In this document: piece by piece, positions 3,799 to 60,407 of the stretch
Layout: the number at the start of each line of letters is the position of its first letter
Position numbering within the stretch: the first letter of the stretch is position 1
Assembly: GCA_036803205.1 (NCBI GenBank)
Contig: DAIRUS010000003.1
Coordinates: 1 to 61,900, forward strand
Origin: a bacterium
Lineage (GTDB): Bacteria > Patescibacteriota > Minisyncoccia > Minisyncoccales > GBS-2
DNA length: 61,900 nt
Reading direction: 5' to 3'
Position numbers and translations under genes: made by a program
Notes under the pieces: generated by a model
Databases searched by the model: none
What the model saw: the letters and a program-made list of their open reading frames with translations, nothing else
What the model was told of the DNA's origin: nothing

Positions 3799-3835
3799 AC
3801 TGCTACAAATTCTTTGCGATCGCAAAAAGAAAGTG
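3799..3835. repeat. upstream copy of a 37-bp direct repeat bracketing the PaaX/Cas2-like gene 1; contains the perfect 14-bp palindrome TTTGCGATCGCAAA (3813-3826)
   Basis: 27/37 identical to 4431-4467 in direct orientation. The palindrome overlaps a -35-like TTGCGA (3814-3819), which sits 17 nt upstream of TGaTAAAAT (3834-3842). Confidence 0.7.
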
Positions 3836-4430: not shown

Positions 4431-4467
4431 ACTGCTGCGATATTTTTGCGACCGCTAAAAGAATGAG
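4431..4467. repeat. downstream copy of the 37-bp direct repeat bracketing gene 1 (core GCGACCGC)
   Basis: ACTGCTGCGATATTTTTGCGACCGCTAAAAGAATGAG versus ACTGCTACAAATTCTTTGCGATCGCAAAAAGAAAGTG. Confidence 0.6.
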
Positions 4468-6778: not shown

Positions 6779-8925
6779 TTTTTGGAAAGAATTTTTTCTC
6801 GTGGCAAATTTGTCAATTTTATATCCCTGTAGACTCGATATTCTCTTCTCCATCTAAATTCTTCCTGTTTTCCAACGTGCCATTGTTTAACGGGCCTAAG
6901 ATAGCCTACTATTCTTGAATAAACCTCGCAGGGCTGCTTAATGGCGCATTTTGGACATTCAAAATGTTCGCCAGCCAAATAACCGTGGACCGGACAGATG
7001 GAAAAAGTCGGGGTAAGAGTTATATAGGGTAAATGAAAATTCTCAAAAATTTTTTTGACTAAATTTTTAGCCACTCGCGGATCAGAAATCTTTTCTCCTA
7101 AAAAGAGGTGCAAAATTGTGCCGCCATTATAGCGACATTGTAACTCGTCTTGAAGTTTTAGGGCTTCAAAAATATCATCGGTATAGTTAACGGGCAAATG
7201 AGTGCTATTTGTGTAATATGGTACTTTTTTTGTCCCAGCAGTAATAATATCAGGATATTTTTCTTTATCAATTTTTGCCTGACGATAACTCGTTCCTTCA
7301 CCCGGAGTTGCTTCTAAATTGTATAAATTACCGGTTTCTTTTTGATATTCAACTAGTTTTTTTCTCATAAAATCTAAAACCTCTAAAGTAAATTTTTTGC
7401 CCTTTTTTGAAGCAATGTTTACTCCAAGGAAGTTTAAAAGTGCTTCATTCATTCCGATCAATCCAATAGTTCCAAAGTGATTGCCCAAATAAGAACCTCT
7501 TATCTTTTTAACTGGCGATAAATAATATCTTGAATAAGGATAAAGTCCTTTTTCCATAAAATTCTCTAAGGCCTTTCTCTTAATTTCCAAGGATCCTTTT
7601 GCTAAATTCATTAAATATTCTAATCTCTCGAAAAATTCCTTTTTAGTTTTTGACAAATATCCAATCCGCGGCATATTAATGGTTACCACGCCAATACTGC
7701 CGGTGGAAGGATTTGAACCAAAAAGTCCGCCGCCTCTTTTGTAAAGCTCGCGATTGTCCAGTCTAAGCCGGCAACACATTGACCTAGCATCTTCTGGTTT
7801 CATATCTGACTGAACAAAGTTTGAGAAATAATTTATCCCATATTTTGCTGTTGCTTCCCATAACGGGTCTAAAACAGAATTATCCCAATCGAAGTCTTTA
7901 GTAATGGAAACAGTTGGAATGGGAAAAGTAAAAGGTCTTCCTTTTGCGTCACCTTCCATTAATACCTCATAAAAAGCCCTAATAAACATATTCATTTCTT
8001 CTTGGAATTCCCCATAGGTTTCTTTTTGCGGTTTTCCACCAATAATTACTGGTTGTTTGGCTAAAAATTCTGGAGGCTTAATGTCTAAAGAAACATTAAT
8101 AAATGGGGTTTGAAAGCCAACCCGAGTTGGCACCATGCAGTTATACAAAAATTCCTGCATTGCTTGTTTGACTTGAGGATAATTTAAATTGTCATAGCGA
8201 ATGAAAGGCGCCAAAAGAGTATCGAAATTAGAAACCGCATTTGCTCCGGCTGTTTCTCCTTGAAGAGTGTATAAAAAGTTAACCAATTGACCAAGGGCTG
8301 TTCGAAAATGTTTTGCCGGCTTGCACTCTAATTTTCCTGGCACTCCGCCAAATCCTCGAACTAATAAATCATAAAGATCCCAGCCCATACAGTAAGGAGC
8401 TAAAATTTCCAAATTATGGATATGAAAGTCTTCATTGATTGCTGCTTCTCTGATTTCTTTAGGATAGATTTTGTTTAACCAATATTTTTTTGAAATAAAA
8501 GAGCCGACATATTGATTTAAACCCTGTAAAGAAAATGTCATATTGGCGTTTTCATAGATTTGCCAGTCAAGTTCTTGAATATATCTATCAATCGCCTCAG
8601 ACGATTCATCAATTACCGCTACTGCCTCCCTAATTCTCCTTCTTTGCTCTCGATATAAAATATAAGCCCTGGCAGTCTCCACAAGGCCTTCTAAAATTAA
8701 AACCTCTTCCACAATGTCTTGAATTTGTTCAACGTGGGGAATCTCTTCTTTTTTAAAGCGGCGATTTAAAATTCTAACAACTTTATCCGAAAGTCTTCTT
8801 GCTCTTTTGCCATCACCTTGACCAGTGGCAGTTAAGGCTTTGAAAATGGCATCTTGGATTTGATTCTGATCAAAATCCACAATCGTTCCATCTCTTTTTT
8901 GAACTTTAGTGATTTTATTTTCCAT
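6775..8925 (-). CDS. nrdD: anaerobic ribonucleoside-triphosphate reductase (class III) with N-terminal ATP-cone
   Basis: ATP-cone (VQKRDGTIVDFDQNQIQDAI). C-terminal Zn site (CPVHG...CPKC) and glycyl-radical motif SRIVGYLRP. Start moved to MENKITKV (8925). Confidence 0.9.
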   Translation of the reverse strand: MENKITKVQKRDGTIVDFDQNQIQDAIFKALTATGQGDGKRARRLSDKVVRILNRRFKKEEIPHVEQIQDIVEEVLILEGLVETARAYILYREQRRRIREAVAVIDESSEAIDRYIQELDWQIYENANMTFSLQGLNQYVGSFISKKYWLNKIYPKEIREAAINEDFHIHNLEILAPYCMGWDLYDLLVRGFGGVPGKLECKPAKHFRTALGQLVNFLYTLQGETAGANAVSNFDTLLAPFIRYDNLNYPQVKQAMQEFLYNCMVPTRVGFQTPFINVSLDIKPPEFLAKQPVIIGGKPQKETYGEFQEEMNMFIRAFYEVLMEGDAKGRPFTFPIPTVSITKDFDWDNSVLDPLWEATAKYGINYFSNFVQSDMKPEDARSMCCRLRLDNRELYKRGGGLFGSNPSTGSIGVVTINMPRIGYLSKTKKEFFERLEYLMNLAKGSLEIKRKALENFMEKGLYPYSRYYLSPVKKIRGSYLGNHFGTIGLIGMNEALLNFLGVNIASKKGKKFTLEVLDFMRKKLVEYQKETGNLYNLEATPGEGTSYRQAKIDKEKYPDIITAGTKKVPYYTNSTHLPVNYTDDIFEALKLQDELQCRYNGGTILHLFLGEKISDPRVAKNLVKKIFENFHLPYITLTPTFSICPVHGYLAGEHFECPKCAIKQPCEVYSRIVGYLRPVKQWHVGKQEEFRWRREYRVYRDIKLTNLPREKILSKK

Positions 8926-9107
8926 AAAAAGACAAAAAAAATAAGACAAAATATTTCCGGTCTAAAAAATTTCTTTTTCCAAGAGAATATTATCTTATTT
9001 TAATTATTTTAATTCAACAAAAAAACTGGGTCAATCCAGGCCAAGTACAGTTAAAAACCCTGAGTTATCCACAAGTAAAATTTAACAAAACTTTTTAAAC
9101 CTGTTTA

Positions 9108-10025
9108 TCAAAATCCGGTAGCAATTAAAGTTAATTTAATCTCTCCCTCCTTTAAGGTTTCATCTTCAATGGCACCAAAAATAACTTTTGCTTGAGGGTT
9201 TATTTCTTTAGTAAGAATTCTGCCAATTTCTTCAACTTCGTAAAGCGAAATATCTTGGCCAGAAACATTAAATAAAATTCCTTTTGCTCCAACCGGCGTT
9301 ATATCTAAAAGAGGGGAACTTAAAGCTAATCTGGTCACCGTCTCGGCTCTTTTTTCACCAAAAGCCCTACCTACACCAAAAAGAGCTGTTCCAGAATTTT
9401 TCAGAATTGATTTAATGTCAGCAAAATTGAGACTGATAATACCAGGCGCGGTTATTAAACCGGAAATCGCCCTGACTGCTTCTCTTAAGATCTCATCGCA
9501 GACCCAGAAAGCAGAAGAGATGGAGGTTTTTGGATCTAAAATCTCTAATAATTTGTCATTTTTTATACAAACTAAACTATCCACCTTTTCTTTTAGTTTT
9601 GCTATCCCCTCTTCGGCAATTTTTGTTCTCGTCTGGCCTTCAAAAGAGAATGGTTTTGTCACTACTGCTACTGTCAGGGCTCCTAAGTTTTTAGCAATTT
9701 CGGCCACCACCGGGCCAGCACCAGTTCCAGTCCCGCCACCAGCACCATAGGTAATAAAAATCATATCAGCTCCCTTTAAAATTTGGGTAATCTCTTTATC
9801 GCTTTCTTTAGCTGCCGCCTCACCAATTTCAGGTTTCATTCCTGCACCTAGGCCTTGGGTAACATTTTTACCAATTCTCAATTTTAAATCAGCTTTAGTT
9901 TTTTTTAAATCTTGATAATCAGTATTAACAGCAATCAGTTCTACTTCCTCGATTTTTGTCTTTTTCATCCTAGCAATAGCATTTCCACCCGAACCTCCAA
10001 CTCCTACCACTTTAATCTTTGTCAT
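9108..10025 (-). CDS. ftsZ: cell division GTPase FtsZ, core domain only (305 aa)
   Basis: GVGGSGGNAI and GGGTGTGAGPVVA tubulin signature. Ends at ...LIATGF, so there is no linker or C-terminal peptide. Start moved to MTKIKVVGVGG. Confidence 0.9.
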   Translation of the reverse strand: MTKIKVVGVGGSGGNAIARMKKTKIEEVELIAVNTDYQDLKKTKADLKLRIGKNVTQGLGAGMKPEIGEAAAKESDKEITQILKGADMIFITYGAGGGTGTGAGPVVAEIAKNLGALTVAVVTKPFSFEGQTRTKIAEEGIAKLKEKVDSLVCIKNDKLLEILDPKTSISSAFWVCDEILREAVRAISGLITAPGIISLNFADIKSILKNSGTALFGVGRAFGEKRAETVTRLALSSPLLDITPVGAKGILFNVSGQDISLYEVEEIGRILTKEINPQAKVIFGAIEDETLKEGEIKLTLIATGF

Positions 10026-16304: not shown

Positions 16305-16949
16305 ATGAATTATAATATTTCCTCTATGACAATTATCATTGGGTTAGGTAATCCCGGAAAAAAATTTCAAAAAACTCGCCATAATCTTGGCTTCCGGGTA
16401 ATTGATGTATTTGGGAAAAAAAATCAGTTTCCCAATTTTAGAATCTTAAAGAAATGTCTGGCCTTAATTTCCGAAAAGAAATTGAATAATGAAAAAATCC
16501 TCCTGGCAAAGCCCCAAACCTTTATGAATCTATCAGGAAAATCAGTGAAGCTTCTCATCCACCACTTTTTCCCCAAACCCCAAATACTCCAAATAAATGC
16601 CATGGCTGATATTTGGAGTATTGAAGAGAGAGTTTGGATAGTTCATGATGAAATCGATTTGCCTCTGGGAGAGATAAAGATCGTCAAAAATCGAGGAGCA
16701 GCTGGTCACAAAGGAGTTCAATCAATAATCGATGAATTGAAAACTAAAAACTTTGTAAGAATCCGAATTGGAATCAGACCAAAAAATCAAGAAACTGAAA
16801 AACAAAAAAACATTGAAAAGTTTGTTCTTCAAAAATTTGATAAAGAAGAGGAAAAAATTGTTAAAGAAGTAATAAAAAAAACTGCCCAAGCTCTTGAATT
16901 TACCTTAAAAAATGGTTTAGAAAAAGCAATGAGCGAATATAACAGATAA
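16305..16949 (+). CDS. pth: peptidyl-tRNA hydrolase carrying a 22-codon palindromic insertion (probable true start at 16326)
   Basis: IIGLGNPGKKFQKTRHNLGF, FMNLSGKSV, VHDEIDLPLG, GHKGVQSI. An extra segment, PKPQILQINAMADIWSIEERVW, lies between the FF and IVHDE blocks. Confidence 0.9.
   Translation: MNYNISSMTIIIGLGNPGKKFQKTRHNLGFRVIDVFGKKNQFPNFRILKKCLALISEKKLNNEKILLAKPQTFMNLSGKSVKLLIHHFFPKPQILQINAMADIWSIEERVWIVHDEIDLPLGEIKIVKNRGAAGHKGVQSIIDELKTKNFVRIRIGIRPKNQETEKQKNIEKFVLQKFDKEEEKIVKEVIKKTAQALEFTLKNGLEKAMSEYNR
16573..16637. repeat. third copy of the type-2 palindromic element, in frame inside pth
   Basis: The 23-mer ATACTCCAAATAAATGCCATGGC (16584-16606) is identical to 57628-57650, and TGGAGTATT (16614-16622) is also shared. 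Outer arms are CCAAAC/GTTTGG. Confidence 0.85.
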
Positions 16950-17436: not shown

Positions 17437-19458
17437 ATGGATTTGTCAAGGGTGAAGATTGACCAAGTTTTAATTTGTAGCCTCACTCCCTATTTTTTGG
17501 AAAAGGGGCTAGTTTGGTTTGAAAAAAATTTAAATAAAATTTTGGAGGCAAGAAAAACCCAATCTTTTTTTGAGGAAAATATAATTTTTTTAACTAAAGA
17601 CCAAATTTACAATTTTTCTCAATTTTTGAGGAAATTGGATGAAATGGGCTACGAAAAAGTCTTGACAGTTTCTGAACCGGGAGAATTTGCTCAAAGGGGA
17701 GGAATTATTGATGTCTTTCCGATAAATCTGAATTTTGCCGTCCGTTTTGAATTTTTGGGAAATAAAATTGAAAACATTGAAAAATTACCAATTGAGATTG
17801 AAGATGAAAAAGCGGCAAAAGAAATTTTAAAAAAGAAGTTAAAATCTCAAAAATTATTTTCTGATTTAAAAGGACTAAAACCAGGAGATTATTTGGTTCA
17901 TTTAGATCATGGTATTGGCAAATTCCTCTCATTTACTCAATTATATTGCGATCGCAATATAATTAAGTATTATGTTTTGGAATATGATAAAAATGATAGA
18001 CTCTATGTGCCAGTGGGGTTGGAACGAAAACTTTCAAGATATATTGGCTTTGTTGAGCCGAAACTCTCTAGACTAGGATCTTCTCTTTGGCAAAGAATAA
18101 AGAAAAAAGTTAAAGAAGAAGCTGAAAAATTAGCCAGAGAACTGCTGGAAATTTATGCTAAAAGAGAAATAGCTACTAGACCTCCTTATCTTCCAGAGGA
18201 CGAAATTGATTTTCAGCTTAAAGCCTCTTTTTCTTATACAGAAACGCCAGACCAAATTCAAACCCTTGAGGAATTAAAAAGGGATTTAGAAGGTTCAGAA
18301 CCAATGGACAGAATTGTCTGTGGTGATGTTGGTTTTGGCAAAACAGAAATTGCTTTAAGGGTAATGGTGAGAGTAGTAAAATCTGGCTATCAGGCAGCAA
18401 TGATTTGTCCGACGACCATTTTAGCTAATCAGCATTTTCAAAATTTTAAAGAAAGACTAAAGGATTTTCCAATCAAAATTGCAATGTTATCAAGGCTCCA
18501 GTCAAAAAAAGAACAAAAAGAAGTAATTGAAGGATTAAAAACTGGAAAAATTGATATTATTATTGGCACTCATCGTTTGTTGTCGAAAGATGTTGAAGAA
18601 TGTCTAGTTACCAACCTACCCCATTGTCCATTTTATGAGCCGGCACGAAAAGGATTAGGTCTTTTAGTTATTGATGATGAGCAAAGATTTGGAGTAAAGC
18701 AAAAAGAAAAATTGAAAAAAATGAGGGCTTCGCTTGATGTTCTTTCTCTTTCAGCCACCCCTATCCCCCGAACCCTCTATATGGCTTTGTCTTCCTTAAA
18801 AGATATTAGTTTAATTCAAACTCCACCTGTCGGTCGATTACCGGTAAAAACTTTTATTTTGCCATTTTCTGAAAAAATAATTAAAAAAGCAATTAAAAAT
18901 GAAATTTGTCGCGGCGGTCAAGTTTATTATCTTCATAATCGCGTCGAAACAATTGAAGCAACTAGAAAATTTTTAGAAAAACTAATACCCGAAGCAAAAT
19001 TTGAAATTGCTCATGGCCGGTTAAAAGAAAAAAGGTTAGTAAAAGTAATGGAAGATTTTCAGAAAAAAAAGATAGATGTTTTGGTTGCCACCACTATTAT
19101 TGAAAACGGTTTAGATTTGCCAAATGTCAATACCTTAATTGTTGCCGATGCCGCTCGTTTGGGTTTAGCTGAAGCCTATCAAGTTCGAGGAAGAATTGGT
19201 CGAAGTTATACCCAGGCCTTTGCCTATTTTTTGTACGGAAGCCATTTAACAGAAAAAGCTAAGTTGCGTTTAGATGCTCTAAAAGAGGCTGCAGAATTAG
19301 GTTCTGGTTATAAAATTGCTCTTAAAGATCTGGAAATTCGCGGCGCCGGTAATATCTTGGGGAAAGAACAATCGGGAAATATAAACCGAGTAGGGCTGAA
19401 CTTGTATTGCCAAATGCTAAACGAAGCGGTTGAAAAAATGAAAAGAAGGAACGCCTAA
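17437..19458 (+). CDS. mfd: transcription-repair coupling factor, minimal form (673 aa)
   Basis: CarD/RID-like GDYLVHLDHGIGKF...LYVPV. SF2 helicase motifs (GDVGFGKTE, DDEQRFG, SATPIPRT, QVRGRIGR). No UvrB-homology N-terminal module and no C-terminal D7. Confidence 0.85.
   Translation: MDLSRVKIDQVLICSLTPYFLEKGLVWFEKNLNKILEARKTQSFFEENIIFLTKDQIYNFSQFLRKLDEMGYEKVLTVSEPGEFAQRGGIIDVFPINLNFAVRFEFLGNKIENIEKLPIEIEDEKAAKEILKKKLKSQKLFSDLKGLKPGDYLVHLDHGIGKFLSFTQLYCDRNIIKYYVLEYDKNDRLYVPVGLERKLSRYIGFVEPKLSRLGSSLWQRIKKKVKEEAEKLARELLEIYAKREIATRPPYLPEDEIDFQLKASFSYTETPDQIQTLEELKRDLEGSEPMDRIVCGDVGFGKTEIALRVMVRVVKSGYQAAMICPTTILANQHFQNFKERLKDFPIKIAMLSRLQSKKEQKEVIEGLKTGKIDIIIGTHRLLSKDVEECLVTNLPHCPFYEPARKGLGLLVIDDEQRFGVKQKEKLKKMRASLDVLSLSATPIPRTLYMALSSLKDISLIQTPPVGRLPVKTFILPFSEKIIKKAIKNEICRGGQVYYLHNRVETIEATRKFLEKLIPEAKFEIAHGRLKEKRLVKVMEDFQKKKIDVLVATTIIENGLDLPNVNTLIVADAARLGLAEAYQVRGRIGRSYTQAFAYFLYGSHLTEKAKLRLDALKEAAELGSGYKIALKDLEIRGAGNILGKEQSGNINRVGLNLYCQMLNEAVEKMKRRNA
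17939..17964. repeat. perfect 26-bp palindrome AATTATATTGCGATCGCAATATAATT inside mfd
   Basis: Self-complementary over all 26 nt. Shares the 12-mer TTGCGATCGCAA with 3814-3825. Confidence 0.9.
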
Positions 19459-19535: not shown

Positions 19536-20402
19536 ATGGAGGATATAAAAGAAATTTCAATTAACGACGAGAAATATCCTAAGCTTTTAAAAAAAATTAA
19601 AGACGGACCGAAAGTTCTCTATTATCGGGGAGAAATAAAAAATGAAGAAAATTGTTTTGCCATTGTGGGAACCAGACGGTGTTCAGATTATGGAAAGCAG
19701 GTGGCCTTGGAAATTGCCGGAGATTTAGCCGAGGCAGGATTAACAATTGTTTCCGGCCTGGCGCCAGGAATTGATACCTTTGCCCATCGGGCAACGGTTG
19801 AAAAAGGAAGAAGGACAATCGCCGTTTTAGGCACCGGAGTTGATGAAAAATCAATTTATCCCAAATCTAACCTAAAATTGGCAAGAAAAATTTTAGAAAT
19901 CGGTGGTTGTCTTATTTCTGAATATCCAGCAGGAACTCGCGGGACCCAATTTACCTTTCCTCAAAGAAATCGAATAATCTCTGGACTTTCTTTGGGAGTT
20001 TTAGTGGTTGAGGCGAAAGAAAAATCAGGAGCTTTAATTACGGCCAATTATGCATTTCAACAAAAAAGAAAAGTTTTTGCTGTACCTGGCTCAATTTATT
20101 CTTCCAATTCTAAGGGCCCCCATCTTTTAATTAAAAGCGGTGCCAAATTAGTTGAAAATGCCAACGACATCCTCAAGGAACTAAATCTTCCCCTTAAGAA
20201 GGTTAGTTTCTTTTGTGAAGGAGAAACAGAAGAAGAAATCTTTGTGTTAAATGCTTTAAGAGAGGGGGGATTAGATATTGATAAAATCATTGAGAAAACA
20301 AAATTATCAGCGGCTAAAGTAGTCAGCACTCTTGCCATTTTAGAAATAAAAGGTAAGGTAAAAAACTTAGGAGGAAATATTTATGCCCTTAGTCATAGTT
20401 GA
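19536..20402 (+). CDS. dprA: DNA processing protein DprA/Smf
   Basis: Rossmann-like domain with SGLAPGIDTFAHRATV and a C-terminal winged-helix-like tail. Confidence 0.85.
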   Translation: MEDIKEISINDEKYPKLLKKIKDGPKVLYYRGEIKNEENCFAIVGTRRCSDYGKQVALEIAGDLAEAGLTIVSGLAPGIDTFAHRATVEKGRRTIAVLGTGVDEKSIYPKSNLKLARKILEIGGCLISEYPAGTRGTQFTFPQRNRIISGLSLGVLVVEAKEKSGALITANYAFQQKRKVFAVPGSIYSSNSKGPHLLIKSGAKLVENANDILKELNLPLKKVSFFCEGETEEEIFVLNALREGGLDIDKIIEKTKLSAAKVVSTLAILEIKGKVKNLGGNIYALSHS

Positions 20403-22500
20403 AAGTCCGACAAAAGGAAATACTATTAAAAAATTTTTAGGTCCTCAATACAAGGTTCTTGCTTCTTACGGGCATATTAGGGATTTACCGGAAGATGAGT
20501 TTGGAATAGATGTTGAAAAAAATTTTAAGCCAAAATACATTATTATTCCAAAAGCCAAAAAAATTGTTCAGTTTCTGAAAAAAGAGGCAGAAAAAGCCAA
20601 CTTAATTATAATTTCGACCGACCCCGATAGAGAAGGAGAAGCTATTGCTTACCACTTAATTCATCTTCTAAATCTAAACGGAGAAAAACCATATCAAAGA
20701 ATTGTTTTTCATGAAATTACCAAATCGGCAATCGAGGAAGCGTTTAAAAAGCCGAGAAAGATTGACCTAAATTTAGTTGATGCTCAGCAAGCCAGAAGAA
20801 TTTTAGATAGAATTGTTGGCTATAAATTAAGCCCATTTCTCTGGAAAAAAGTAGCCAGAGGTTTATCAGCCGGAAGAGTGCAATCAGTAGCGGTGAGGTT
20901 AGTGGTGGAAAGAGAAAGGGAAATTCAAAATTTTGTTCCCCAAGAATATTGGACCATAACAGCCCAACTCAAAAAATTAGAGAACAAAACTCAGCAAGTT
21001 TTACAGGGGTCGGACCTCTGTCAATCGGACCTCTGTCAATCGGACCTCTGTCAATCGGACCTCTGTCAATTTGACGCTCTTTTGGTCAAAAAAGATGAAA
21101 AAATGATTCCCAAATTGGGAATTAAGACAAAGGAAGAGGCAGAAAAAATTATTAAAGAATTAAAAGATGCTGAATATAAAGTAGCAAATATTGAGAAAAA
21201 AGAGGTCAAAAGAAATCCCCTACCGCCATTTGTTACTTCCACTTTGCAACAGGCGGCCTGGCAGAGGTTTAAATGGCCAGCAAAATTGACAATGCAAATT
21301 AGCCAGCAACTTTATGAGACAGGATATATTACCTATCATCGTAGCGATTCTTTAAATGTTTCAGAATTGGCTTTAGCAATGGCTAAAAGATTTATTGTTA
21401 AAAATTACGGTCAAAATTATTATCAATTTCGAAAATATAAAACAAGGGCAAAAGTAGCCCAAGAAGCCCATGAAGCTATTAGACCAACCTATCCGGAAAA
21501 TATTCCAGAAAAAATTTCCAGAAAATTAGAAAAAAGCCAATTAAAGCTTTATGAACTCATTTGGAAAAGATTTATCGCCTGTCAAATGGCTCAAGCAATT
21601 TTTGAGTCAACAATTGTTGATATTTCAGCCAAAAATTATATTTTTCGGGCTAACGGACAAGTTTTGAAATTTGATGGATTTTTAAAGGTTTATCCAATTA
21701 AATATGAAGAGGTTGAATTGCCTTCTTTAAAAATAAATGAAATTTTAGAATTAATAAACCTCGTTCCTTCCCAACATTTCACCCAACCCCCTCCCAGATA
21801 TACCGAAGCAACTCTAATTAAAGCCTTAGAAGAAAATGGCATCGGTCGACCATCAACCTATGCACCAATATTATCGACAATTCAGGAAAGAAACTACATT
21901 GAAAAAGATGAGAACAAAAAATTTCGACCAACTGAAATCGGATTAGTGGTTAATGATTTGTTGGTCAATCACTTTTCGGAAATTGTTGATATTGGTTTTA
22001 CTGCCAAGATGGAAGAGAATTTAGATAAAATTGCTTTGGGAGAAAAAAAATGGCTACCAGTAATAAAAGAGTTTTATCAATCTTTCGATGAGAATTTAAA
22101 AAAGAAATATCAAGAAATTTCAAAAAAGAGTTTAATTGAAAAAACAGAAAAAATTTGTCCCCAATGTCAAGCTCATCTTTTAATTCGTTTAGGTAAATTT
22201 GGAAAATTCTACGCCTGTTCTAAATTTCCAAAATGTAAATACACTGAATCTTTAGAGGAAAACGATTTGGGTCCCAAATGTCCAAAATGTGGACAGGGAA
22301 AGATAGTGAAAAAAAGAACTAAAAAAAGGAAAATATTTTATGCCTGTAATCGGTTCCCGAAATGTAATTTTGCCTTATGGGAAAAACCAACAGGAGAAAT
22401 TTGCCCGAAATGCCAATCCCTCTTAGTGGAAACCAAAAGAAAGCAGATAAAATGTTCAAATCAAGAATGTGATTACAAATGGATAAATTCCTCAACCTAA
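20383..22500 (+). CDS. topA: DNA topoisomerase I
   Basis: Toprim (VESPTK, DPDREGE). YITYHRSDS active-site Tyr region. Three C-terminal CxxC...CxxxxC zinc ribbons. Confidence 0.9.
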   Translation: MPLVIVESPTKGNTIKKFLGPQYKVLASYGHIRDLPEDEFGIDVEKNFKPKYIIIPKAKKIVQFLKKEAEKANLIIISTDPDREGEAIAYHLIHLLNLNGEKPYQRIVFHEITKSAIEEAFKKPRKIDLNLVDAQQARRILDRIVGYKLSPFLWKKVARGLSAGRVQSVAVRLVVEREREIQNFVPQEYWTITAQLKKLENKTQQVLQGSDLCQSDLCQSDLCQSDLCQFDALLVKKDEKMIPKLGIKTKEEAEKIIKELKDAEYKVANIEKKEVKRNPLPPFVTSTLQQAAWQRFKWPAKLTMQISQQLYETGYITYHRSDSLNVSELALAMAKRFIVKNYGQNYYQFRKYKTRAKVAQEAHEAIRPTYPENIPEKISRKLEKSQLKLYELIWKRFIACQMAQAIFESTIVDISAKNYIFRANGQVLKFDGFLKVYPIKYEEVELPSLKINEILELINLVPSQHFTQPPPRYTEATLIKALEENGIGRPSTYAPILSTIQERNYIEKDENKKFRPTEIGLVVNDLLVNHFSEIVDIGFTAKMEENLDKIALGEKKWLPVIKEFYQSFDENLKKKYQEISKKSLIEKTEKICPQCQAHLLIRLGKFGKFYACSKFPKCKYTESLEENDLGPKCPKCGQGKIVKKRTKKRKIFYACNRFPKCNFALWEKPTGEICPKCQSLLVETKRKQIKCSNQECDYKWINSST
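21010..21069. repeat. perfect 15-bp x4 tandem repeat (TCGGACCTCTGTCAA) in topA, encoding (SDLCQ)x4
   Basis: Direct reading; four identical units, in frame. Confidence 0.95.
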
Positions 22501-22606: not shown

Positions 22607-22694
22607 GCCGCGGTGCTGGAATTGGCAGACAGGATGGACTCAAAATCCATTGTCCCAAAAGGACGTGTGGGTTCAACTCCCACCTGCGGCACCA
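22607..22694 (+). tRNA. tRNA-Leu(CAA), type II with long variable arm, CCA encoded
   Basis: Acceptor GCCGCGG/CTGCGGC. Anticodon stem ATGGA/TCCAT with loop CTCAAAA. Variable arm GTCCCAAAAGGAC. T-arm GTGGGTTCAACTCCCAC. 3' ACCA. Confidence 0.9.
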
Positions 22695-36540: not shown

Positions 36541-36837
36541 ATGGCTGTAATAAGGGATGGCAAACTGGTGTTAAGCGGGGAAGAATTAGATATAATCATC
36601 GGAAAAAAGGTGATTAAGTTGTTGCTAACCTCGCGGGGATTGAATGAATACGGGCTTTTGCTCCTTTACACGCCCCAAAAAACCTCCAACCCTATGGACA
36701 AGTCCTTAACGGACATAAGTCTTCCAGTTCCAGAGGAGGTTTTATCAAAATTTCCCGAAGGAAGTTCCTTCGGGAAAGTTTCCAAAGTCTTCCATCCCAC
36801 AACAAAAAAACCCATCGGCATTGTTCTTTGTCCATAA
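36541..36837 (+). CDS. 98-aa orphan protein
   Basis: SD AAGGAGGAGGG, own promoter and terminator. No recognised family. Confidence 0.5.
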   Translation: MAVIRDGKLVLSGEELDIIIGKKVIKLLLTSRGLNEYGLLLLYTPQKTSNPMDKSLTDISLPVPEEVLSKFPEGSSFGKVSKVFHPTTKKPIGIVLCP

Positions 36838-39762: not shown

Positions 39763-40203
39763 ATGAATAAATGTATATTGTGTGGAAAGGGTAAAAGTAA
39801 AGAAGGTCATGTAGTGTGTAGTGAGTGTTATCAAAAATATCGGGAAGAAAGTGTCAGGGCCTTAATTGGTGGAAAAGCGATAACTTTAGTCAGTTGGGTA
39901 AAAGAAGAAGCCGAAAAAAGGCTTCAAGTTCTTCGAGAAGAAGTGGAAAAAAGTCAAGAAGAACTCCAAAAACTTAATACGAAGGTTCGAGAGGAAGCAT
40001 ACAGTTTCGTTACTCTTTCCCTTAAGGGTCAAAGAGTGCCTAAAGAGGTTTTCCAAGAGGCATTCAAAGAAAAAAAGAGGCAGTTGTGGGAAGAGGCTGG
40101 CGGAAATAGGCTATACTCTAAACACAAACAATTAGAGGAGAATGTCGTTAACCTCGAAAAATTCCTCACAATGGCCCAAAATTTGTCCAATAAAAACCCC
40201 TAA
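39763..40203 (+). CDS. 146-aa orphan: N-terminal zinc ribbon + coiled coil
   Basis: CILCG...CSECY, followed by E/K-rich heptad-like sequence. SD GGAAGGAGGG. Confidence 0.55.
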   Translation: MNKCILCGKGKSKEGHVVCSECYQKYREESVRALIGGKAITLVSWVKEEAEKRLQVLREEVEKSQEELQKLNTKVREEAYSFVTLSLKGQRVPKEVFQEAFKEKKRQLWEEAGGNRLYSKHKQLEENVVNLEKFLTMAQNLSNKNP

Positions 40204-40226: not shown

Positions 40227-40355
40227 AATCTTTTCTTTTTTCTAAAATCTTCTTAGAGAAAAGCTGATTTCCAAACTTCCAAACAAAACTCTTCAATCTC
40301 CATTATTAACACAACTGTAATAAAAAAAGCCATGGCAATCTTATTACAGGAGATT

Positions 40356-41609
40356 TTATTTAAATGAGGATAATTTTTGAGCGATTTTGTTAGTTTCTTT
40401 TATGATTTTTTCTTCTCCTTCAATTTTTCTATCCCTCATTAAAATTTTTCCATCGCAAATTAAATCGGAAACACAATCTCCTGAGGCTGAATAAATTAAA
40501 TCAGAAAGAAAGTTATGTCCCGGTTTAAAATAAATTTTATTTAAATCAATTAAAATTAAATCAGCTAGATATCCTTCTTTGATTTTTCCAGCTTTAATTT
40601 GAAGAGCTTTTGTCCCATTTTCAGTTAAAATTTTTAAAGCCTCTTTTTTGTTAAAAATTTTTGGATCTTTTTCAATTCCCTTTTGTAAAAGAGAAGCGAT
40701 TTTAATTTCTCTGGTCATGTCCAAACTATTGTTAGAAGCCGGACCATCAGTGCCCAGACAAATATTTATTTTCTTTTCTTTAATTTTTTTGTAAGGAAAA
40801 ATTCCCGAAGCTAATTTCAAATTGGAAGAGGGATTATAAATTAAATGGGGTTTTCTTTTGGCTAAAATCTCTATCTCTTTTTCTGAAAGCCAAATTGAAT
40901 GAGCAAAAAGGCAATTTTTACCCAAAAAGCCAATTTTTTCTAAAAATTCTACCGGTCTTAATTTATATTTTTTTAAACTATACTCTCCTTCCCACTCAGT
41001 TTCTGCTAAATGCATGTGAATGAGAAGATGATTTTTCTCGGCAAAATTTCTTACCCAAATTAAATTGTCTTTTGAAACAGTATAGATTGCGTGAGGAGCT
41101 AAAGCTAATTTTATCGTTGAAGGTATTTTATTTTTTAATTCCTGAAAATTTTTTTCTGCATTTTCTCTGGTGCAACCTTTCAAAGAAATGTCTACTACTA
41201 CCAATCCGATTATTGCTCTCATTCCGATTGCTTTTATTGCTTCAATTTGAGCTTGAGGATAAAAATACATTTCGTTAAAAGAAGTTGTTCCCGATTTTAT
41301 CATTTCCAAACAAGCTAATTTTGTTCCCCAGTAAACATCGTCTTGGGTTAATTTTTCTTCCAGCGGCCAAATCTTCTTTTCTAACCATTCTTTTAATGGG
41401 AAGTCGTCGGCTATTCCCCTAAATAAAACCATTGACGAGTGACAATGACAATTAATAAAACCAGGTAAAATTGCCTTTTCTCCCTTGCCATCAATTTTTT
41501 GGTCGGCTTTAAAATTCAAATTTTGGCCAATTTCAGCAATTTTTTCTCCTCTAATAAAAACATCTTTTCTCTTTCCATCTAAAATTACATTTTTGATTAA
41601 AATCTTCAT
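40356..41609 (-). CDS. amidohydrolase, MTA/SAH-deaminase-like (MtaD family)
   Basis: FINCHCHSSM (HxH metal site), HLAET, GTDGPASNN. Confidence 0.7.
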   Translation of the reverse strand: MKILIKNVILDGKRKDVFIRGEKIAEIGQNLNFKADQKIDGKGEKAILPGFINCHCHSSMVLFRGIADDFPLKEWLEKKIWPLEEKLTQDDVYWGTKLACLEMIKSGTTSFNEMYFYPQAQIEAIKAIGMRAIIGLVVVDISLKGCTRENAEKNFQELKNKIPSTIKLALAPHAIYTVSKDNLIWVRNFAEKNHLLIHMHLAETEWEGEYSLKKYKLRPVEFLEKIGFLGKNCLFAHSIWLSEKEIEILAKRKPHLIYNPSSNLKLASGIFPYKKIKEKKINICLGTDGPASNNSLDMTREIKIASLLQKGIEKDPKIFNKKEALKILTENGTKALQIKAGKIKEGYLADLILIDLNKIYFKPGHNFLSDLIYSASGDCVSDLICDGKILMRDRKIEGEEKIIKETNKIAQKLSSFK

Positions 41610-53323: not shown

Positions 53324-56300
53324 TTAAATTTTCTTTATCGCTAAGTGTAAAGTTTGACCTTCAATTTTTATTTCTTTTTCCAGATCAAAAACAATTTTTT
53401 CTTTTTCCGAATAAAAATCTTTTATCTTTGCCTGAAGAGCAATGAGTTTCTGATTTTTAAGTAAAATTTCAGCCAAACTTCCCTCTGTGGAATATCTTAC
53501 CATAATTTTATCTTTTGGTCTAAATCCGGCCTCTTTTCTCATTGATTGAATGTAGCGAATAACTTCTCGCAAAATCCCTTCTTCTTTCAGTTCGGAAGTA
53601 ATTTTTGTATCCAATTCTATTTCTTTTTTAATTCTTCCATCAAAAACTATTTCTTTTACATTCACTTCCTCTTTTAATAATTTTAATAATTTATCATCAA
53701 ACCTAAGCTTTAAATCTTTTATTTTTAGCCTTGAAAGGGGCTGCCTCACTTTTATTTTTGCATTTGACCTTTCAGCTAAAACTAAAGTTGCCATTTCCCT
53801 GATTTTTTCCATTTTCTTTTCCAAATTCTTATCAATCAACTCTTTGTTTGCTTTTGACCAGTCAACTAAATGGATGGAGGTTGGTAGTCGAAAGTTAAAA
53901 CTCAAAAGTTTTTGATAAATGAATTCGCTTAAAAATGGGATAAATGGAGCGGATAATTTGCTGATGGTCAAAAGGACAAATCCTAAAGTTTGAGAAACTA
54001 TTTCAAGTTCTTTTTTTGTTTCTGGTTTTTGAAACCTTTCCCTTGACCTCCTAATATACCAAAGAGAAAGCTCATCAGCAACAAATTTTTCAATTAATCT
54101 TGCCCCTTTAGTTATATCGTAGTTGTCTAAACTTTCAGTAACATCTTGAATTAAAGTATTTAGTTTCGAAATAATCCATTTGTCTAAAACATTTTCCCCT
54201 CTCAGAGGATAAGACTTTCTTATTATTCTCCTAAAATTGGAAGTGGTCTTAGCATAGGTTTGGAAAAATAAAAAGCAATTCCAAAAAATGATTATGAATT
54301 TCCTTAAACTTTCTTCAATATCTTTTTCCGAAAATAGTTTTGCCTCGCCTGGTTGATTAATAGTGTAAAAATACCATCTGACAGCATCGACTCCGTATTT
54401 TTCAATAATATACCAGGGGTCAACTACGTTACCTTTTGACTTAGACATTTTTTCTCCCTTTTCATCTAAAACATGACCCAAAGAAATAACATTTTTGTAA
54501 CTCGGACCAAAGTCCAAAAGAGTAGAAATTGCCAATAGAGTATAAAACCAACCCCGGGTTTGGTCTATTCCTTCGGAGATATAGTCAGCGGGAAATAATA
54601 TTTTTTTAATTAACTTTCGATAGTTTTGGATTTTAAGCTCGAGGTTTTTGGTTTTAAAACAAGAAAGTGGGAAATGGGCTTGGGCAAAAGGCATTGCTCC
54701 AGAGTCAAACCAACAATCAACCACTTCTGAGACTCTTGCCATTAAATTGCCGCACTTTGGACAATAAAATCTTACCTCATCAATATACGGCCGATGAAAA
54801 TCTAATTCTCCTTTCTCATTCATTGGTAAAAATTTAAATTCTAATCTTCTTAACTCGCCATTTTTAATAATGCCCTTTTTCTTTTTTTCCGCAACTAATT
54901 CTTTTTTTGTTTGTCCCTTCAAGGCTCCTGCCAACAGCCAGAAAGGATCACCATGACCAACAATTAAGATTTTTTTATCCTGATATTTTTTATCAATTTC
55001 TTTTAAAAATTCAGTCATTCTCATTTGGCAATGAAGCCAACTTTCTCCTTTTGGTAACTTTTTTTCAAAGCGCTCTTCAGAAATTGGAAAATCCCGAAAA
55101 TATTCTTCTTTTGGTCGACCATGGTAAATGCCCAAATTAATATCTCTTAATCTTCTGTCGAAATTGACTTTTAATTTCAACTCTTTGGCTATAATTTCAG
55201 CAGTTTGTTTTGTCCGGAAAAAATCGGAAGAATAAATCAAATCAATCCCTAATTTTTTCAATTTCGGAATCACTCTTTTTATTTGCTCAACTCCCTCTTC
55301 TGTTAAACCAATGGGTTCTTTTTCTGGAAAAGGATAGGTCAGGTCTTTTTTTCTTGTTTGATAAATTGTTTGGCCATGTCTTAAGAAAAAATATTGATTG
55401 GTCGAAAATTTTTGAGAAAGTAAATCTCTTTTTCCGCCAATGACTTCTAAGTATTGGCAACTTTGGCATTGCCAAATTGGCAAAGGTGTCCCCCAATACC
55501 TTTCTCTCGATAGGGCCCAATCTTTTATTTCTTTTAACCATTCACCAAATCTCCCTTCTTTTAAATGTCCTGGAATCCAATTGATTTTTTGATTATTTTT
55601 GATTAAGTTTTCCTTCAGGGCGGTCATTCTAATAAACCAACTTTTTTTAGCATAATAAAGAAGGTGGCTGCGGCATCTCCAGCAAAAAGGATAATCGTGT
55701 TCGTACAATTCTTCCTTAAAAAGCAAGTTTCTCTCTTTGAGGTCTTCAATAATTAGTGGATCAGCTTTTTTGACGAAAAGTCCGGCCCATTTTTTGATAT
55801 CAAGCCTAAACCTTCCTTCTTCATCAACTGTTAACAAAATTGGAAACTCCGGCCTATTCTCCAATCGGTAATTTTCATTTACCAATTTTATTAATGCCAA
55901 GTCTTCCTCTCCAAAAGCCGGGGCAATATGAACCAAGCCTGTCCCCTCTTCCAATGAAACAAAATCAGCCGGAAGAGTTTTGTAAATTGTTATTCCCACC
56001 CGGGATTCAACCGGATAAAGAGGTTGATAGTAAAGATTAACCAAATCTTTTCCTTGAAACTCTTTTACAATTTCTCCTTGAATACCTGTAGCTTCAATCC
56101 GCTCTTTAGCCAGAATTAAAAACTCCTGGCCAATTTTTAATTTGGCATAAACGAAATTTTCATTTAGAGCAATGGCTACATTTCCTGGTAAAGTCCAAGG
56201 GGTGGTTGTCCAAACTAAAAGAGAGGTGTTTTTGAATTCCGGATTTAAAATGGGAAATTTAACATAGATTGAAGGCTCCTTTATTTTTTCGTAACCCAAA

Positions 56301-56866
56301 GCTAGCTCGTGACTAGAAAGAGAGGTTTGACACCGCGGACAATAAGGAACAACTTTAAAATCTTGATATAACAGTCCTTTTTGCCAAATGGTTTTTAAAA
56401 TCCACCAGACGCTTTCAATGTATTCAGGGGTATAAGTAATATAGGGGTCTTTCATGTCTAGCCAAAAACCAATCCTTTCGGTCAATTTCTCCCAATCTTT
56501 TTTGTATTGCCAGACAGATTTTTTACATTCTTCGTTGAATTTGGCAATGCCATATTTTTCTATCTCTCTTTTTGATTTCAATCCTAATTTTTTTTCAATT
56601 TCCAATTCAACCGGCAAGCCGTGAGTATCCCAACCCGCCCTTCTTAAAACTCTAAATCCTTGCATCGTTTTGTAGCGACAAATAATATCTTTAAAAACCC
56701 GACTCAAAACATGATGGATTCCCGGCTTGGCATTAGCCGTCGGTGGCCCCTCATAAAAAACAAAATCAATTTTCTTTTTTCTTCTTTTGATGCTATTTTC
56801 AAAAATTCTATTTTTCTTCCAAAACCTAAGTACTTTTTCCTCTAATTTTGGAAAGTTTATCTCCAT
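53324..56866 (-). CDS. ileS: isoleucyl-tRNA synthetase with an internal histidine-phosphatase-like domain
   Basis: PPTANAKPGIHHV (HIGH-like), CP1 editing region, WGTPLPIW, KMSKSKGN, anticodon-binding domain. 1180 aa, including an insert of about 196 aa (FLRHGQT...VGHGD). Confidence 0.9.
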   Translation of the reverse strand: MEINFPKLEEKVLRFWKKNRIFENSIKRRKKKIDFVFYEGPPTANAKPGIHHVLSRVFKDIICRYKTMQGFRVLRRAGWDTHGLPVELEIEKKLGLKSKREIEKYGIAKFNEECKKSVWQYKKDWEKLTERIGFWLDMKDPYITYTPEYIESVWWILKTIWQKGLLYQDFKVVPYCPRCQTSLSSHELALGYEKIKEPSIYVKFPILNPEFKNTSLLVWTTTPWTLPGNVAIALNENFVYAKLKIGQEFLILAKERIEATGIQGEIVKEFQGKDLVNLYYQPLYPVESRVGITIYKTLPADFVSLEEGTGLVHIAPAFGEEDLALIKLVNENYRLENRPEFPILLTVDEEGRFRLDIKKWAGLFVKKADPLIIEDLKERNLLFKEELYEHDYPFCWRCRSHLLYYAKKSWFIRMTALKENLIKNNQKINWIPGHLKEGRFGEWLKEIKDWALSRERYWGTPLPIWQCQSCQYLEVIGGKRDLLSQKFSTNQYFFLRHGQTIYQTRKKDLTYPFPEKEPIGLTEEGVEQIKRVIPKLKKLGIDLIYSSDFFRTKQTAEIIAKELKLKVNFDRRLRDINLGIYHGRPKEEYFRDFPISEERFEKKLPKGESWLHCQMRMTEFLKEIDKKYQDKKILIVGHGDPFWLLAGALKGQTKKELVAEKKKKGIIKNGELRRLEFKFLPMNEKGELDFHRPYIDEVRFYCPKCGNLMARVSEVVDCWFDSGAMPFAQAHFPLSCFKTKNLELKIQNYRKLIKKILFPADYISEGIDQTRGWFYTLLAISTLLDFGPSYKNVISLGHVLDEKGEKMSKSKGNVVDPWYIIEKYGVDAVRWYFYTINQPGEAKLFSEKDIEESLRKFIIIFWNCFLFFQTYAKTTSNFRRIIRKSYPLRGENVLDKWIISKLNTLIQDVTESLDNYDITKGARLIEKFVADELSLWYIRRSRERFQKPETKKELEIVSQTLGFVLLTISKLSAPFIPFLSEFIYQKLLSFNFRLPTSIHLVDWSKANKELIDKNLEKKMEKIREMATLVLAERSNAKIKVRQPLSRLKIKDLKLRFDDKLLKLLKEEVNVKEIVFDGRIKKEIELDTKITSELKEEGILREVIRYIQSMRKEAGFRPKDKIMVRYSTEGSLAEILLKNQKLIALQAKIKDFYSEKEKIVFDLEKEIKIEGQTLHLAIKKI

Positions 56867-56957: not shown

Positions 56958-57009
56958 GACACCCCTCAAATACTCCATTTAATTGCCATGGCATTTATTT
57001 GGAGTATAA
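56958..57009. repeat. left arm of a perfect 52-bp inverted repeat (type-2 palindromic element)
   Basis: The reverse complement equals 57626-57677 at 52/52 positions. Internal quasi-palindrome ATACTCCA-N6-TGCCATGGCA-N6-TGGAGTAT. Contains TTGCCA (56983-56988), a 16-nt spacer, then TATAAT (57005-57010). Confidence 0.95.
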
Positions 57010-57033
57010 TAAATATGGAGAAAGGTGGATTTT

Positions 57034-57606
57034 ATGAGTAAATATAAATATTATTTTAAAAAACCTAGGTCTGAAATTGTGAAAGATATTTTGAGTTGGT
57101 TAATGATTGGTGGGGCGGTTTATATTGCCGCTTCTTCCCCTTATTTTATTCACAATTTATTAAAAGCTTTTAAAAGAGGAAGACTATATCCTGAAAAGAA
57201 AGTTTATAATACATTTTATAAACTTCGAAAACAAGGGTGCATTAAAATTGAAAAAAAAGGAAAACAAATCTATATCTCTTTAACCGAAGAAGGAAAAAGA
57301 AAGGTTGGTTGGCTTCAAATAGATAGTTTGAAAATAAAAAAACCAAAAAAATGGGATAGAAAGTGGAGGATGGTTATTTTTGATATTTCTCAATTGAAAA
57401 AAATTTATCGAGAGGCTTTAAGGGGAAAATTGAAGGAGCTTGGCTTTTATCCTTTTCAAAAAAGTGTTTGGGTCTATCCTTATCCTTGTCAAGATGAAAT
57501 CGCTCTCCTTAGAGATTTTTTTGGTTTAACCTATAAAGAACTTTGTCTTATTACTGCTGAAAATATAGAGAAGGCGGATTTTTTACATAAAATTTTTAAA
57601 CTTTAA
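57034..57606 (+). CDS. PaaX-like protein: hydrophobic N-terminal segment + winged-helix + Cas2-like domain, paralog 2
   Basis: Same architecture as 3849-4430 (KKWDRKWRMVIFDI...LGFYPFQKSVWV). ATG at 57034 preceded by GGAGAAAGGTGG. The track start at GTG 57025 is also possible. Confidence 0.6.
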   Translation: MSKYKYYFKKPRSEIVKDILSWLMIGGAVYIAASSPYFIHNLLKAFKRGRLYPEKKVYNTFYKLRKQGCIKIEKKGKQIYISLTEEGKRKVGWLQIDSLKIKKPKKWDRKWRMVIFDISQLKKIYREALRGKLKELGFYPFQKSVWVYPYPCQDEIALLRDFFGLTYKELCLITAENIEKADFLHKIFKL

Positions 57607-57625
57607 ACTTTCAACTTATACTCAC

Positions 57626-57677
57626 TTATACTCCAAATAAATGCCATGGCAATTAAATGGAGTATTTGAGGGGTGTC
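57626..57677. repeat. right arm of the perfect 52-bp inverted repeat
   Basis: TTATACTCCAAATAAATGCCATGGCAATTAAATGGAGTATTTGAGGGGTGTC. Starts 19 nt after the stop codon. Confidence 0.95.
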
Positions 57678-60043: not shown

Positions 60044-60402
60044 GGGGATGATTGGAATCGATGAAGAGTTGACTAAAATAGGCAAACCGAGTATTCTCAA
60101 ATCTCGTTAAGCTTTGAGAAAAAGAATAAGTGCCAACTTATTCAGAGAACCAGCATTAGCCTACGCTTAATGGCTGATGCCATCGAGGTTGGTGACTCTC
60201 GCTAACCGACCACGGTGTTATAACCAGCGAGATAAATAGTTCTTTTGAAAATCCAAAAAGAACTATTAAGAGTTCTTAGGATTTAAGTATAGAAATTTTT
60301 GTCCAATTTTTAATTCTATACCTATTGACTAAATTGGACTAAGCTTGTAGAACTATTTTAGAAAAACTCTTCAGACGTGGGTTCAATCCCCGCCATCTCC
60401 AC
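60044..60402 (+). ncRNA. ssrA: tmRNA
   Basis: 5' GGGGATG pairs with 3' CATCTCC, including a G3-U pair. T-arm GTGGGTTCAATCCCCGC. Tag reading frame 60132-60170 encodes ANLFREPALAYA then a stop. Confidence 0.85.
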
Positions 60403-60407
60403 TAAAT

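Follow-up and report, generated by a model that had tools for sequence, protein, structure and literature searches.

We suggest that the palindromic box which lies in frame inside pth, the gene of peptidyl-tRNA hydrolase (Pth), in the 61,900-nt window of contig DAIRUS010000003.1 (the whole stretch analysed, whose coordinates are used throughout) belongs to a two-fold symmetric box family that brackets a conserved PaaX-like gene in genomes of the candidate phyla radiation (CPR). On balance we favour the view that the family is the cognate site of the PaaX-like protein which it flanks, and that a copy of it would have been pasted into a permissive loop of Pth. An earlier reading of the letters alone (the sequence-only reading) took the element for an anonymous selfish palindrome behaving like a Rickettsia palindromic element (RPE). 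Its RPE-like part is partly supported and sharpened here, with a protein partner that is potentially novel. The anonymity does not hold, since the boxes bracket the PaaX-like gene in dozens of CPR genomes, appear to supply its promoter and have arms which covary with its presumed recognition helix.

The window Pth matches PF01195 over the whole profile (E 1.6e-55, positions 1–183 of 183). Its catalytic His (GNPG..TRHN) and Asp (HDE/D) motifs are present, H19, H107, and D108 are invariant in the alignment, and the matches include 36 solved Pth structures and thousands of homologues. The true start of the gene is likely the ATG at 16326 (MTIIIGLGNPG). Within pth the 23-mer ATACTCCAAATAAATGCCATGGC stands at 16584–16606 (+), and it recurs exactly at 57628–57650 (+) and 56985–57007 (−), on the two sides of a PaaX-like gene, P2. 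When up to three mismatches are allowed, six matches are found in the window, against 0.00 expected from 100 dinucleotide-preserving shuffles. The 23-mer is one half of a 38-nt dyad, ATACTCCA-N7-GCCATGGC-N7-TGGAGTAT, and the full pattern ATACTCCA-N22-TGGAGTAT occurs three times, with identical arms and core, against none expected. A chance match is thus rejected for both, and the 23/23 match to the repeat at 57 kb, as well as the TGGAGTAT arm after a 7-nt spacer, are as the sequence-only reading had described them. With strict scoring the 62 kb hold just three gapless palindromes, of which the boxes of pth and mfd make two, and five shuffles give none.

The copies share more than the consensus. 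The non-consensus spacer AATAAAT and the flanking bases are also common to pth and the 57-kb copies, and the likeness to CCCCTCAAATACTCC and GGAGTATTTGAGGGG of the latter runs a few bases past the dyad on both sides. This identity in spacer and flanks argues for copying rather than convergence. The closing pair CCAAAC (16573–16578)/GTTTGG (16632–16637), proposed earlier to delimit the unit, is present, but with only 6 nt it has no statistical weight alone. The 66 nt of the unit are indeed 22 codons in the pth frame, reading PKPQILQINAMADIWSIEERVW. An assembly artefact is unlikely, because the Pth protein is seen on two contigs and the second locus is also found on an independent 14.7-kb assembly (L009).

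P2 lies in the 616 nt that are bracketed by a perfect 52-nt inverted repeat. The best solved relative of the protein is E. coli PaaX (8A39), and the domain search finds PaaX_M and a winged helix only, with no transposase or HUH/Y1 domain. Its matches to Cas2 profiles are weak, and TIGR02277 is reached with 44 bits against a cut-off of 264, over profile positions 33–134 of 279. The AlphaFold model of the PaaX-like protein, with a predicted local distance difference test (pLDDT) score of 58.5, is too low for a fold search, so only its secondary structure was used, which agrees with a winged helix and a Cas2-like domain. The family numbers 1,658 homologues at E<1e-10. The best of them are 65–75% identical, against ~64% for the best relatives of Pth, so that the family exceeds Pth in conservation. 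Even among members with no more than 35% identity the residues WD..WR and Q.SVW, as well as F-D-I where the first strand ends, do not vary; they resemble the canonical Cas2 motifs. The upstream box holds a sigma-70-like promoter, which has the top score of the region, 11/12, and stops 24 nt ahead of the P2 start codon. The paralogue P1 is also bracketed by a palindrome pair, with the core GCGATCGC upstream and GCGACCGC downstream.

The PaaX-like gene adjoins ileS in 10 of 72 loci, distant Nomurabacteria included, and in locus L022 the ileS-gene-argS order is that of the window, though its boxes are of the GCTATAGC kind and their arms differ. A classical transposon, in which the boxes would be the terminal inverted repeats of the gene, is rejected on three counts: the flank copies are inverted in some genomes and direct in others (as for P1, L024, and L039), and the gene stays beside ileS in distant lineages while the boxes there differ, and no duplicated target is visible. 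The combination of terminal inverted repeats, target duplication and varying positions that defines MITEs (miniature transposable elements with inverted repeats) and insertion sequences is not what is seen here.

In the box an 8-bp core is conserved, and around it are an A/T-rich spacer and arms specific to the lineage. We fetched 67 PaaX-like loci from species-representative CPR genomes and one from an NCBI metagenome-assembled genome, and counted brackets at 39 loci, with a perfect palindromic 8-mer core no further than 150 nt from the gene. Of the 39, 31 have such a core upstream, 24 have one downstream and 23 have it on either side, while control windows from the same loci hold one in 8 of 502 cases (1.6%). 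The core is mostly GCCATGGC, with the variants GCTATAGC, GCGATCGC, ACCATGGT, and ACGTACGT, and the upstream and downstream boxes of one gene usually have common arms. In 49 pooled sites the complementarity reaches 80–94% at positions 5–12 from the core and is lower next to it. The pooled half-site has C at −12 (70%), G/T at −11, T/C at −10, only A/T at −6/−7 and T at −1 (74%); the C at −12 is paired with G at +12, and there is no one-sided tag. Two arm types dominate, aCGTAAAAT and ATACTCCAAAT, the latter being that of the window. Most of the 31 upstream copies begin with TTGC[CTG]A, and in 16 of them a hexamer matching TATAAT in at least five of six positions follows after 16–18 nt. The mean −10 score is 4.3 for upstream copies versus 2.8 for downstream ones, which lie 8–60 nt past the stop codon. 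The boxes bracket a resident and very conserved gene, and, judged from these motifs, the upstream copy overlaps its predicted promoter. A second hairpin, with variable stems and an apical (A/C)CTCGAGC, is seen ~60–115 nt upstream of several PaaX-like genes (L077 3408–3440, L023, L024, L038) and is followed by a T-run in L077; it may be a terminator or another motif.

The arms of the boxes change together with the protein. Asn after F[YS] in the presumed recognition helix occurs in seven proteins, all of which have GTA[ATC]AA arms on three different cores. Lys at this position goes mostly with C[TG]CC arms, namely ATACTCC (window P2, L085, L090), ATACGCC (L041), and GTCGCCG (L027), and other arm types also follow protein clades. 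As the sample is small and its sequences are related, we take this protein-box covariation as supportive rather than conclusive.

At the protein level the insert is a single 15-residue gap when the window Pth is set residue by residue against three solved Pth structures, in line with the 15–18 extra amino acids estimated before. It is placed just before the IVHDE strand, which ends in the catalytic HDE, and on its other side is the helix that follows the FMNLSG motif. The FMNxSG-to-IHDD segment takes 35 aa in the window Pth and 18–21 aa in 72 of 116 relatives (62%), which lack the insert; insert-free orthologues, named as a check on the sequence-only reading, are thus the majority. The other 44 homologues have 3–17 extra residues at the same loop, 25 of them with Ala-Met-Ala (AMA). 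The AlphaFold (AF2) model of Pth, built from 47 sequences, has a mean pLDDT of 89.7. In it residues ~82–102 are coil with a pLDDT of 50–60, falling below 50 at residues 88–92 and 94–97, while the remainder is at 94+. The insert sits between the helix 67–81 and the strand 103–113 and joins their far ends. We take it from the general Pth fold that a loop at these ends should be away from the active site. Of the earlier idea of a surface loop remote from the catalytic residues, the coil is thus borne out by the model, at low confidence, and the remoteness would follow from the general fold. The model is consistent with a disordered 15-aa surface loop that Pth tolerates.

The DNA of the pth inserts was recovered for six relatives (L001, L003, L005, L006, L007, L008). 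Four of them (L001, L003, L005, L007) hold CCATGG-centred palindromes with arms of their own, for example GTAATACtTCA-GCCATGGC-TGAgGTATTAC in L003 and GCGTcAAATTcaa-GCCATGGC-aagAATTTtACGC in L007. The inserts of L001, L003, and L007 fit the CGT-type consensus and L005 has a related GTAAAA arm. In L008 the insert copies the window type in degenerate form, with 27 of 38 positions matching as read by eye, and that of L006 is GC-rich and of a different type. The signature is also visible in codons: in the 25 AMA inserts 2.84 of 5 arm codon pairs are compatible with a palindrome, whereas 2,000 permutation runs give 1.70 and never more than 2.28. A consensus CGT-type box translates to RKIKAMAFILR, and the real inserts read RKIQAMALILR, RQIQAMARILR, and RQIKAMAVIQR. 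At least 25 other CPR Pth proteins, ~60% identical, carry a box at this loop with their own arm type, and the pth copy is therefore no private or recent hop.

The constant frame of these inserts has a simple explanation. The AMA frame (GCC-ATG-GCx) is the only stop-free one in most boxes, so selection to preserve the pth frame, as proposed earlier, is not needed for it, nor does the shared frame prove a single origin. A single ancient insertion argued from this frame was rejected for the same reason, and also because copies in the Pro-Trp frame exist; an apparent degenerate box in another frame, probably Pro-Trp, is seen in the Pth P0013. Degenerate variants of the insert are found among the relatives (L008, INATA, AVAE). 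The insert-bearing Pth are scattered in the neighbour-joining tree, whose weak resolution does not allow gains and losses to be counted.

Seven boxes of several arm types are found in the 62 kb of the window. The one in mfd (gene 17437–19458, +), with arms TACTC-N9-GCGATCGC-N9-GAGTA, occupies a variable loop after the HGIG motif, which has 16 aa in the window versus 12 aa in L006 and L008. The same loop holds a different palindrome, ATTTATGGAGATCgGATCTCCATAAAT, in L001 and a 28-aa repetitive insert in L003. An intergenic box of another arm type is located between the convergent genes 39763–40203 (+) and 40356–41609 (−). A further strong palindrome, AAAATTTCCCGAAGGAAGTTCCTTCGGGAAAGTTT at 36747–36781, the third of the window, is unrelated to the family and terminator-like. 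Beyond the window, a box of a third arm type, CTGTAAAAccaaaGCCATGGCaagcaTTTTACAG, lies in frame at ~8452–8485 of L084, in a 443-aa open reading frame (ORF) at 7938–9269 (−), which by eye is a probable uvrC. It is read there as TVKPKPWQAFYR, in the Pro-Trp and not the Ala-Met-Ala frame, in an apparent linker region. In L081 uvrA is downstream of a box near the contig end, and a link of the boxes (mfd, uvrC, uvrA) with excision-repair genes, as for the repetitive extragenic palindromes (REPs) of other phyla, is possible. Of the proposed mobile repeat that colonises coding DNA, the coding copies in pth, mfd, and the probable uvrC thus stand, and the mobility would be the explanation that we prefer for them.

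A metagenome scan for the ATACTCCA-type box returned 15 stretches, three of which are chance matches (L082, L088, L089). The others include four complete and one partial PaaX-like genes, 57–69% identical to P2, and several unrelated intergenic sites; no pth copy is among the 15, and no coherent regulon is seen among the box-adjacent genes. Four contigs of one metagenome (L080, L081, L091, L084) carry near-identical copies in different gene contexts, which share ~75 nt on the left or ~60 nt on the right of the box. Two of these copies stand at the ends of their contigs, where a dispersed repeat is to be expected, and the unit has the look of a dispersed repeat of larger size or of a promoter module that is repeated. 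In L080 a tRNA gene follows 190 nt further downstream.

Table. Boxes, box-associated genes and promoter-like sites, in window coordinates unless a locus is named
Feature	Position	Strand	Basis or remark
P1-upstream box (TTTGCGATCGCAAA; core GCGATCGC), promoter-like TTGCGA-17-TAAAAT	3813–3826
P1, PaaX-like paralogue, 193 aa	3849–4430	+	DNA 73% identical to P2
Degenerate box downstream of P1 (TTTTTGCGACCGCTAAAA)	4443–4460
pth (peptidyl-tRNA hydrolase) ORF	16305–16949	+	ORF list; PF01195 match
66-nt unit in pth, dyad with degenerate outer extensions (CCCC-AAATACTCC ... GGAGTATT-GAAGAG)	16572–16637	+	similarity to the 57-kb copies
38-nt dyad box in pth (ATACTCCA-AATAAAT-GCCATGGC-TGATATT-TGGAGTAT)	16584–16621		exact arms and core
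15-codon insert relative to insert-free Pth (ILQINAMADIWSIEE)	16584–16628	+	structure alignment; boundaries ambiguous by a few codons
36-nt box in mfd (TACTCAATTATATT-GCGATCGC-AATATAATTAAGTA), in frame, LYCDRNIIK	17934–17969		near-perfect palindrome
Intergenic box of a different arm type (CTGTAATAA-aaaaa-GCCATGGC-aatc-TTATTACAG)	40315–40349
Upstream box copy of P2, left arm of the 52-nt inverted repeat	56958–57009		100% complementarity over 52 nt
Sigma-70-like promoter in the upstream P2 box, TTGCCA (−35, in core)-16 nt-TATAAT	56983–57010	+	score 11/12
P2, PaaX-like protein of 190 aa, winged helix and Cas2-like PaaX_M	57034–57609	+	PF20803, E 4e-19
Downstream box copy of P2, right arm of the 52-nt inverted repeat	57626–57677		19 nt past the P2 stop
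ATACTCCA-type box in a longer repeat	L080 3230–3400; L081 9390–9554; L091 3480–3590; L084 12270–12466

We suggest the following course of events. The pth dyad, ~60 nt with its extensions, would be an in-frame intragenic copy of a REP/RPE-like box family. The boxes would be the recognition sites of the winged-helix/Cas2-like protein, and the upstream copy would serve as its autoregulatory operator. Copies would then spread or be homogenised within the genome by copy-and-paste or gene conversion, and one would have landed in the Pth loop between helix 3 and the strand with the catalytic Asp. The surviving coding copies would be those read in the Ala-Met-Ala frame, as it alone is stop-free. Most probably P2 binds the pth copy, because this copy has the same ATACTCCA arm type as the boxes which flank P2. 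Copying together with a cognate protein would explain the insertions in several genes, the identity of spacer and flanks, the patchiness, and also why the boxes bracket the gene and covary with its product; autoregulation at the upstream copy fits in with it. Both the mobility of the boxes and their binding by the protein are what we infer from these patterns; possible alternatives to mobility are that the copies undergo gene conversion or that a binding site within the gene is selected for.

Several observations weigh against this scheme. No transposition was observed, and no target-site duplication is visible at 56958, at 57677 or around the pth copy. The flanked protein is without a transposase or HUH domain, and its closest characterised relative, PaaX, is a repressor. 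The copy number is modest, with seven boxes in the window, far below the hundreds typical of REPs. The use of one and the same pth loop by many lineages could equally mean a selected site. In GCA_030016765.1, the one other genome from which both loci were recovered, the pth box has the core GCCATGGC while GCTATAGC boxes lie around the single PaaX-like gene recovered, and a paralogue search by name gave no further PaaX-like gene. Finally, the covariation of helix and arms comes from 36 related proteins on a weakly resolved tree.

A stronger form of the proposal, which we put forward tentatively and regard as rather unlikely, is that the winged-helix/Cas2-like protein is more than a repressor and itself maintains and spreads the boxes. 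It would nick or cut the dyad through its Cas2-type site, in which the invariant Asp117 of the FDI motif would be part of the active site, and so seed copying or gene conversion. This would be a self-maintaining partnership like that of REPs with their REP-associated tyrosine transposases (RAYTs), with a Cas2-fold nuclease in the place of the HUH transposase, and widespread in CPR. A box mobilisation of this RAYT-like kind, driven by the protein, is pure inference.

The rival which survives best, although we hold it to be doubtful, is a selected intragenic operator: the PaaX-like repressor would control pth, and possibly mfd, by roadblock or looping, and the insertion would be kept for regulation. 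The PaaX family consists of repressors, and in most genomes the promoter of the regulator itself and a box overlap. The pth inserts keep palindromy, core and the C at −12 at ~60% identity in spite of varying residues, and in the window the pth arms are those of P2, whose helix has the matching residue. Operators within coding sequence have parallels in the PurR operator in purB and lacO2 in lacZ. However, operators normally arise by point mutation and not by insertions of 33–45 nt into the loops of three different genes, and an operator would not call for identity in the non-consensus spacer and flanks. The insert is moreover wanting in most relatives, degenerate in others and scattered on the tree. 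The pth copy also has no promoter-like arrangement, and the box-adjacent genes form no coherent regulon. A pure regulon model thus fits these insertions, this identity and this patchiness poorly, and copying of a cognate site remains our preferred explanation.

Far less probable is an RNA element, which would form hairpins in the mRNA of pth and in both untranslated regions (5' and 3') of the PaaX-like mRNA and would act in processing, stability or binding of the Cas2-like domain. Cas2 and VapD proteins are reported to cleave RNA, and the Cas2-like motifs are conserved here. A 91-nt region with the pth box folds with −22.7 kcal/mol (z = −3.5), and the downstream copies stand where stabilising hairpins are usually found. 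A sense-strand RNA helix would yield an excess of G:T over A:C mismatches, whereas the 49 sites have 24 and 31, respectively, and a hairpin of this kind was rejected for want of a wobble signal. The complementarity runs through the core centre (CATG, TATA, GATC), which is needless in a hairpin loop, and together with the similar mismatch counts this makes the constraint look like that of two-fold symmetric double-stranded DNA. The boxes occur in both orientations relative to transcription, one of them between convergent genes. Rfam gives no match for the window at the gathering threshold, and none for three box-carrying loci at E up to 1. Least credible of all is a functional, lineage-specific AMA loop of Pth whose likeness to the intergenic palindromes would be incidental, since, although many CPR Pth keep the AMA insert at the same place, 23 of 23 nt are identical to non-coding copies with zero chance expectation, the residues beside AMA vary in codon pairs that preserve the DNA complementarity, the loop is predicted to be disordered and most relatives are without it.

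The family that we describe resembles several known systems and differs from each of them. RPE-1 is 100–150 nt long, and RPE families are genus-restricted. Like RPEs and intragenic REPs, the present boxes are palindromic repeats, mostly intergenic, that also occur in frame in genes, where they are translated and tolerated. Among the in-frame intragenic REPs listed by Di Nocera et al. 2013 (PMC3733652) many are in RNA-related genes and in genes of excision repair (uvrA, uvrB, uvrC, uvrD), while here the boxes are in pth, mfd, and the probable uvrC. The same work describes RPE-4 and RPE-6 as CGTC-tagged REPs, CGTC-tagged REPs without a known transposase, and RAYT genes flanked by their REPs (PMC3733652). 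The RPE-like behaviour claimed before is right in that the boxes are in frame, patchy and also present in mfd and the probable uvrC, but by their size of 38–54 nt and their CPR/Patescibacteria host they are not a Rickettsia RPE family. Unlike RPEs and REPs, they are complete two-fold dyads with an 8-bp core and no unpaired GTAG or CGTC tag, their copy number in the window is low, and many lineages have them at one and the same protein loop.

In systems of REPs, or of REPINs (REP doublets forming hairpins), with RAYTs (PMC3116915, PMC3337134) a single resident, vertically inherited gene is flanked by dispersed repeats, the repeat type is clade-specific, and several repeat families per genome are possible. 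The likeness here lies in the resident gene flanked by repeats on both sides (23 of 39 loci) and in the clade-linked arms. The flanked protein, however, is a winged helix with PaaX_M and not an HUH/Y1 (IS200/IS605-like) transposase, the copies would number tens at most, not hundreds, and the upstream repeat doubles as a predicted promoter.

With PaaX the protein shares a winged helix at the N-terminus, a middle domain next to it that is Cas2-like and, as far as the DNA indicates, a palindromic site overlapping the promoter. P2, with 190 aa, is without the C-terminal domain of PaaX (316 aa in 8A39), and it keeps the Cas2-type FDI and Q.SVW, whereas E. coli PaaX has no Asp at that position in the alignment. 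Compared with PaaX operators the site here is longer, and copies are also found downstream of the gene and in coding DNA; no paa genes are seen near P2 in the window. HIP1 of cyanobacteria is a bare, extremely abundant octamer, GCGATCGC, in coding and non-coding DNA. Its 8-bp palindrome is identical to the core of the P1 and mfd boxes, but the octamer here is rare and always has ~15-nt complementary arms. Operators in coding sequence, such as those of PurR in purB, lacO2 in lacZ and the cre sites, are carved from existing codons, in contrast to the site in pth, which is an added 15-codon segment.

CPR genomes are tiny and streamlined, and repeats are thought to be rare in them. The present family would tie such repeats to one of the most conserved small DNA-binding proteins of CPR and is translated inside essential genes. 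No description of the box or of its PaaX-like link was found in the literature on PaaX, CPR palindromes, and Cas2-like proteins. For the PaaX-like family, whose more than 1,500 homologues are labelled 'hypothetical' or 'PaaX', it gives a handle in the form of a predicted site, a putative autoregulated promoter and a candidate specificity residue. Intragenic additions of the REP/RPE type to proteins of translation and repair would also become known from a new superphylum, where another protein goes with them. Should the Cas2-like domain act on the boxes, this would be a new repeat-maintaining system, bearing on the recruitment of the Cas2 fold to DNA transactions, and if the protein spreads them, it could write peptide loops into the essential pth, mfd, and uvrC. 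Annotators may expect box-encoded loops such as ..R-K-I-x-A-M-A-x-I-L-R.. in CPR proteins.

Some neighbouring features of the window and of its relatives can be added. The ileS gene (53324–56866, −; 1180 aa) has a histidine-phosphatase domain, His_Phos_1 with its RHG motif, inserted in the middle of the protein according to precomputed Pfam matches. About 4.7 tandem copies of the 15-nt unit TCGGACCTCTGTCAA, five codons long, occupy 21010–21084 within a 705-aa ORF (20383–22500, +). The window holds a tmRNA (60044–60404) and one tRNA (22607–22691), and smpB and infC flank the tmRNA, as given by L009, just downstream of the P2-argS region. Inteins are found in relatives, in nrdD of L003 and L005 and in topA of L006.

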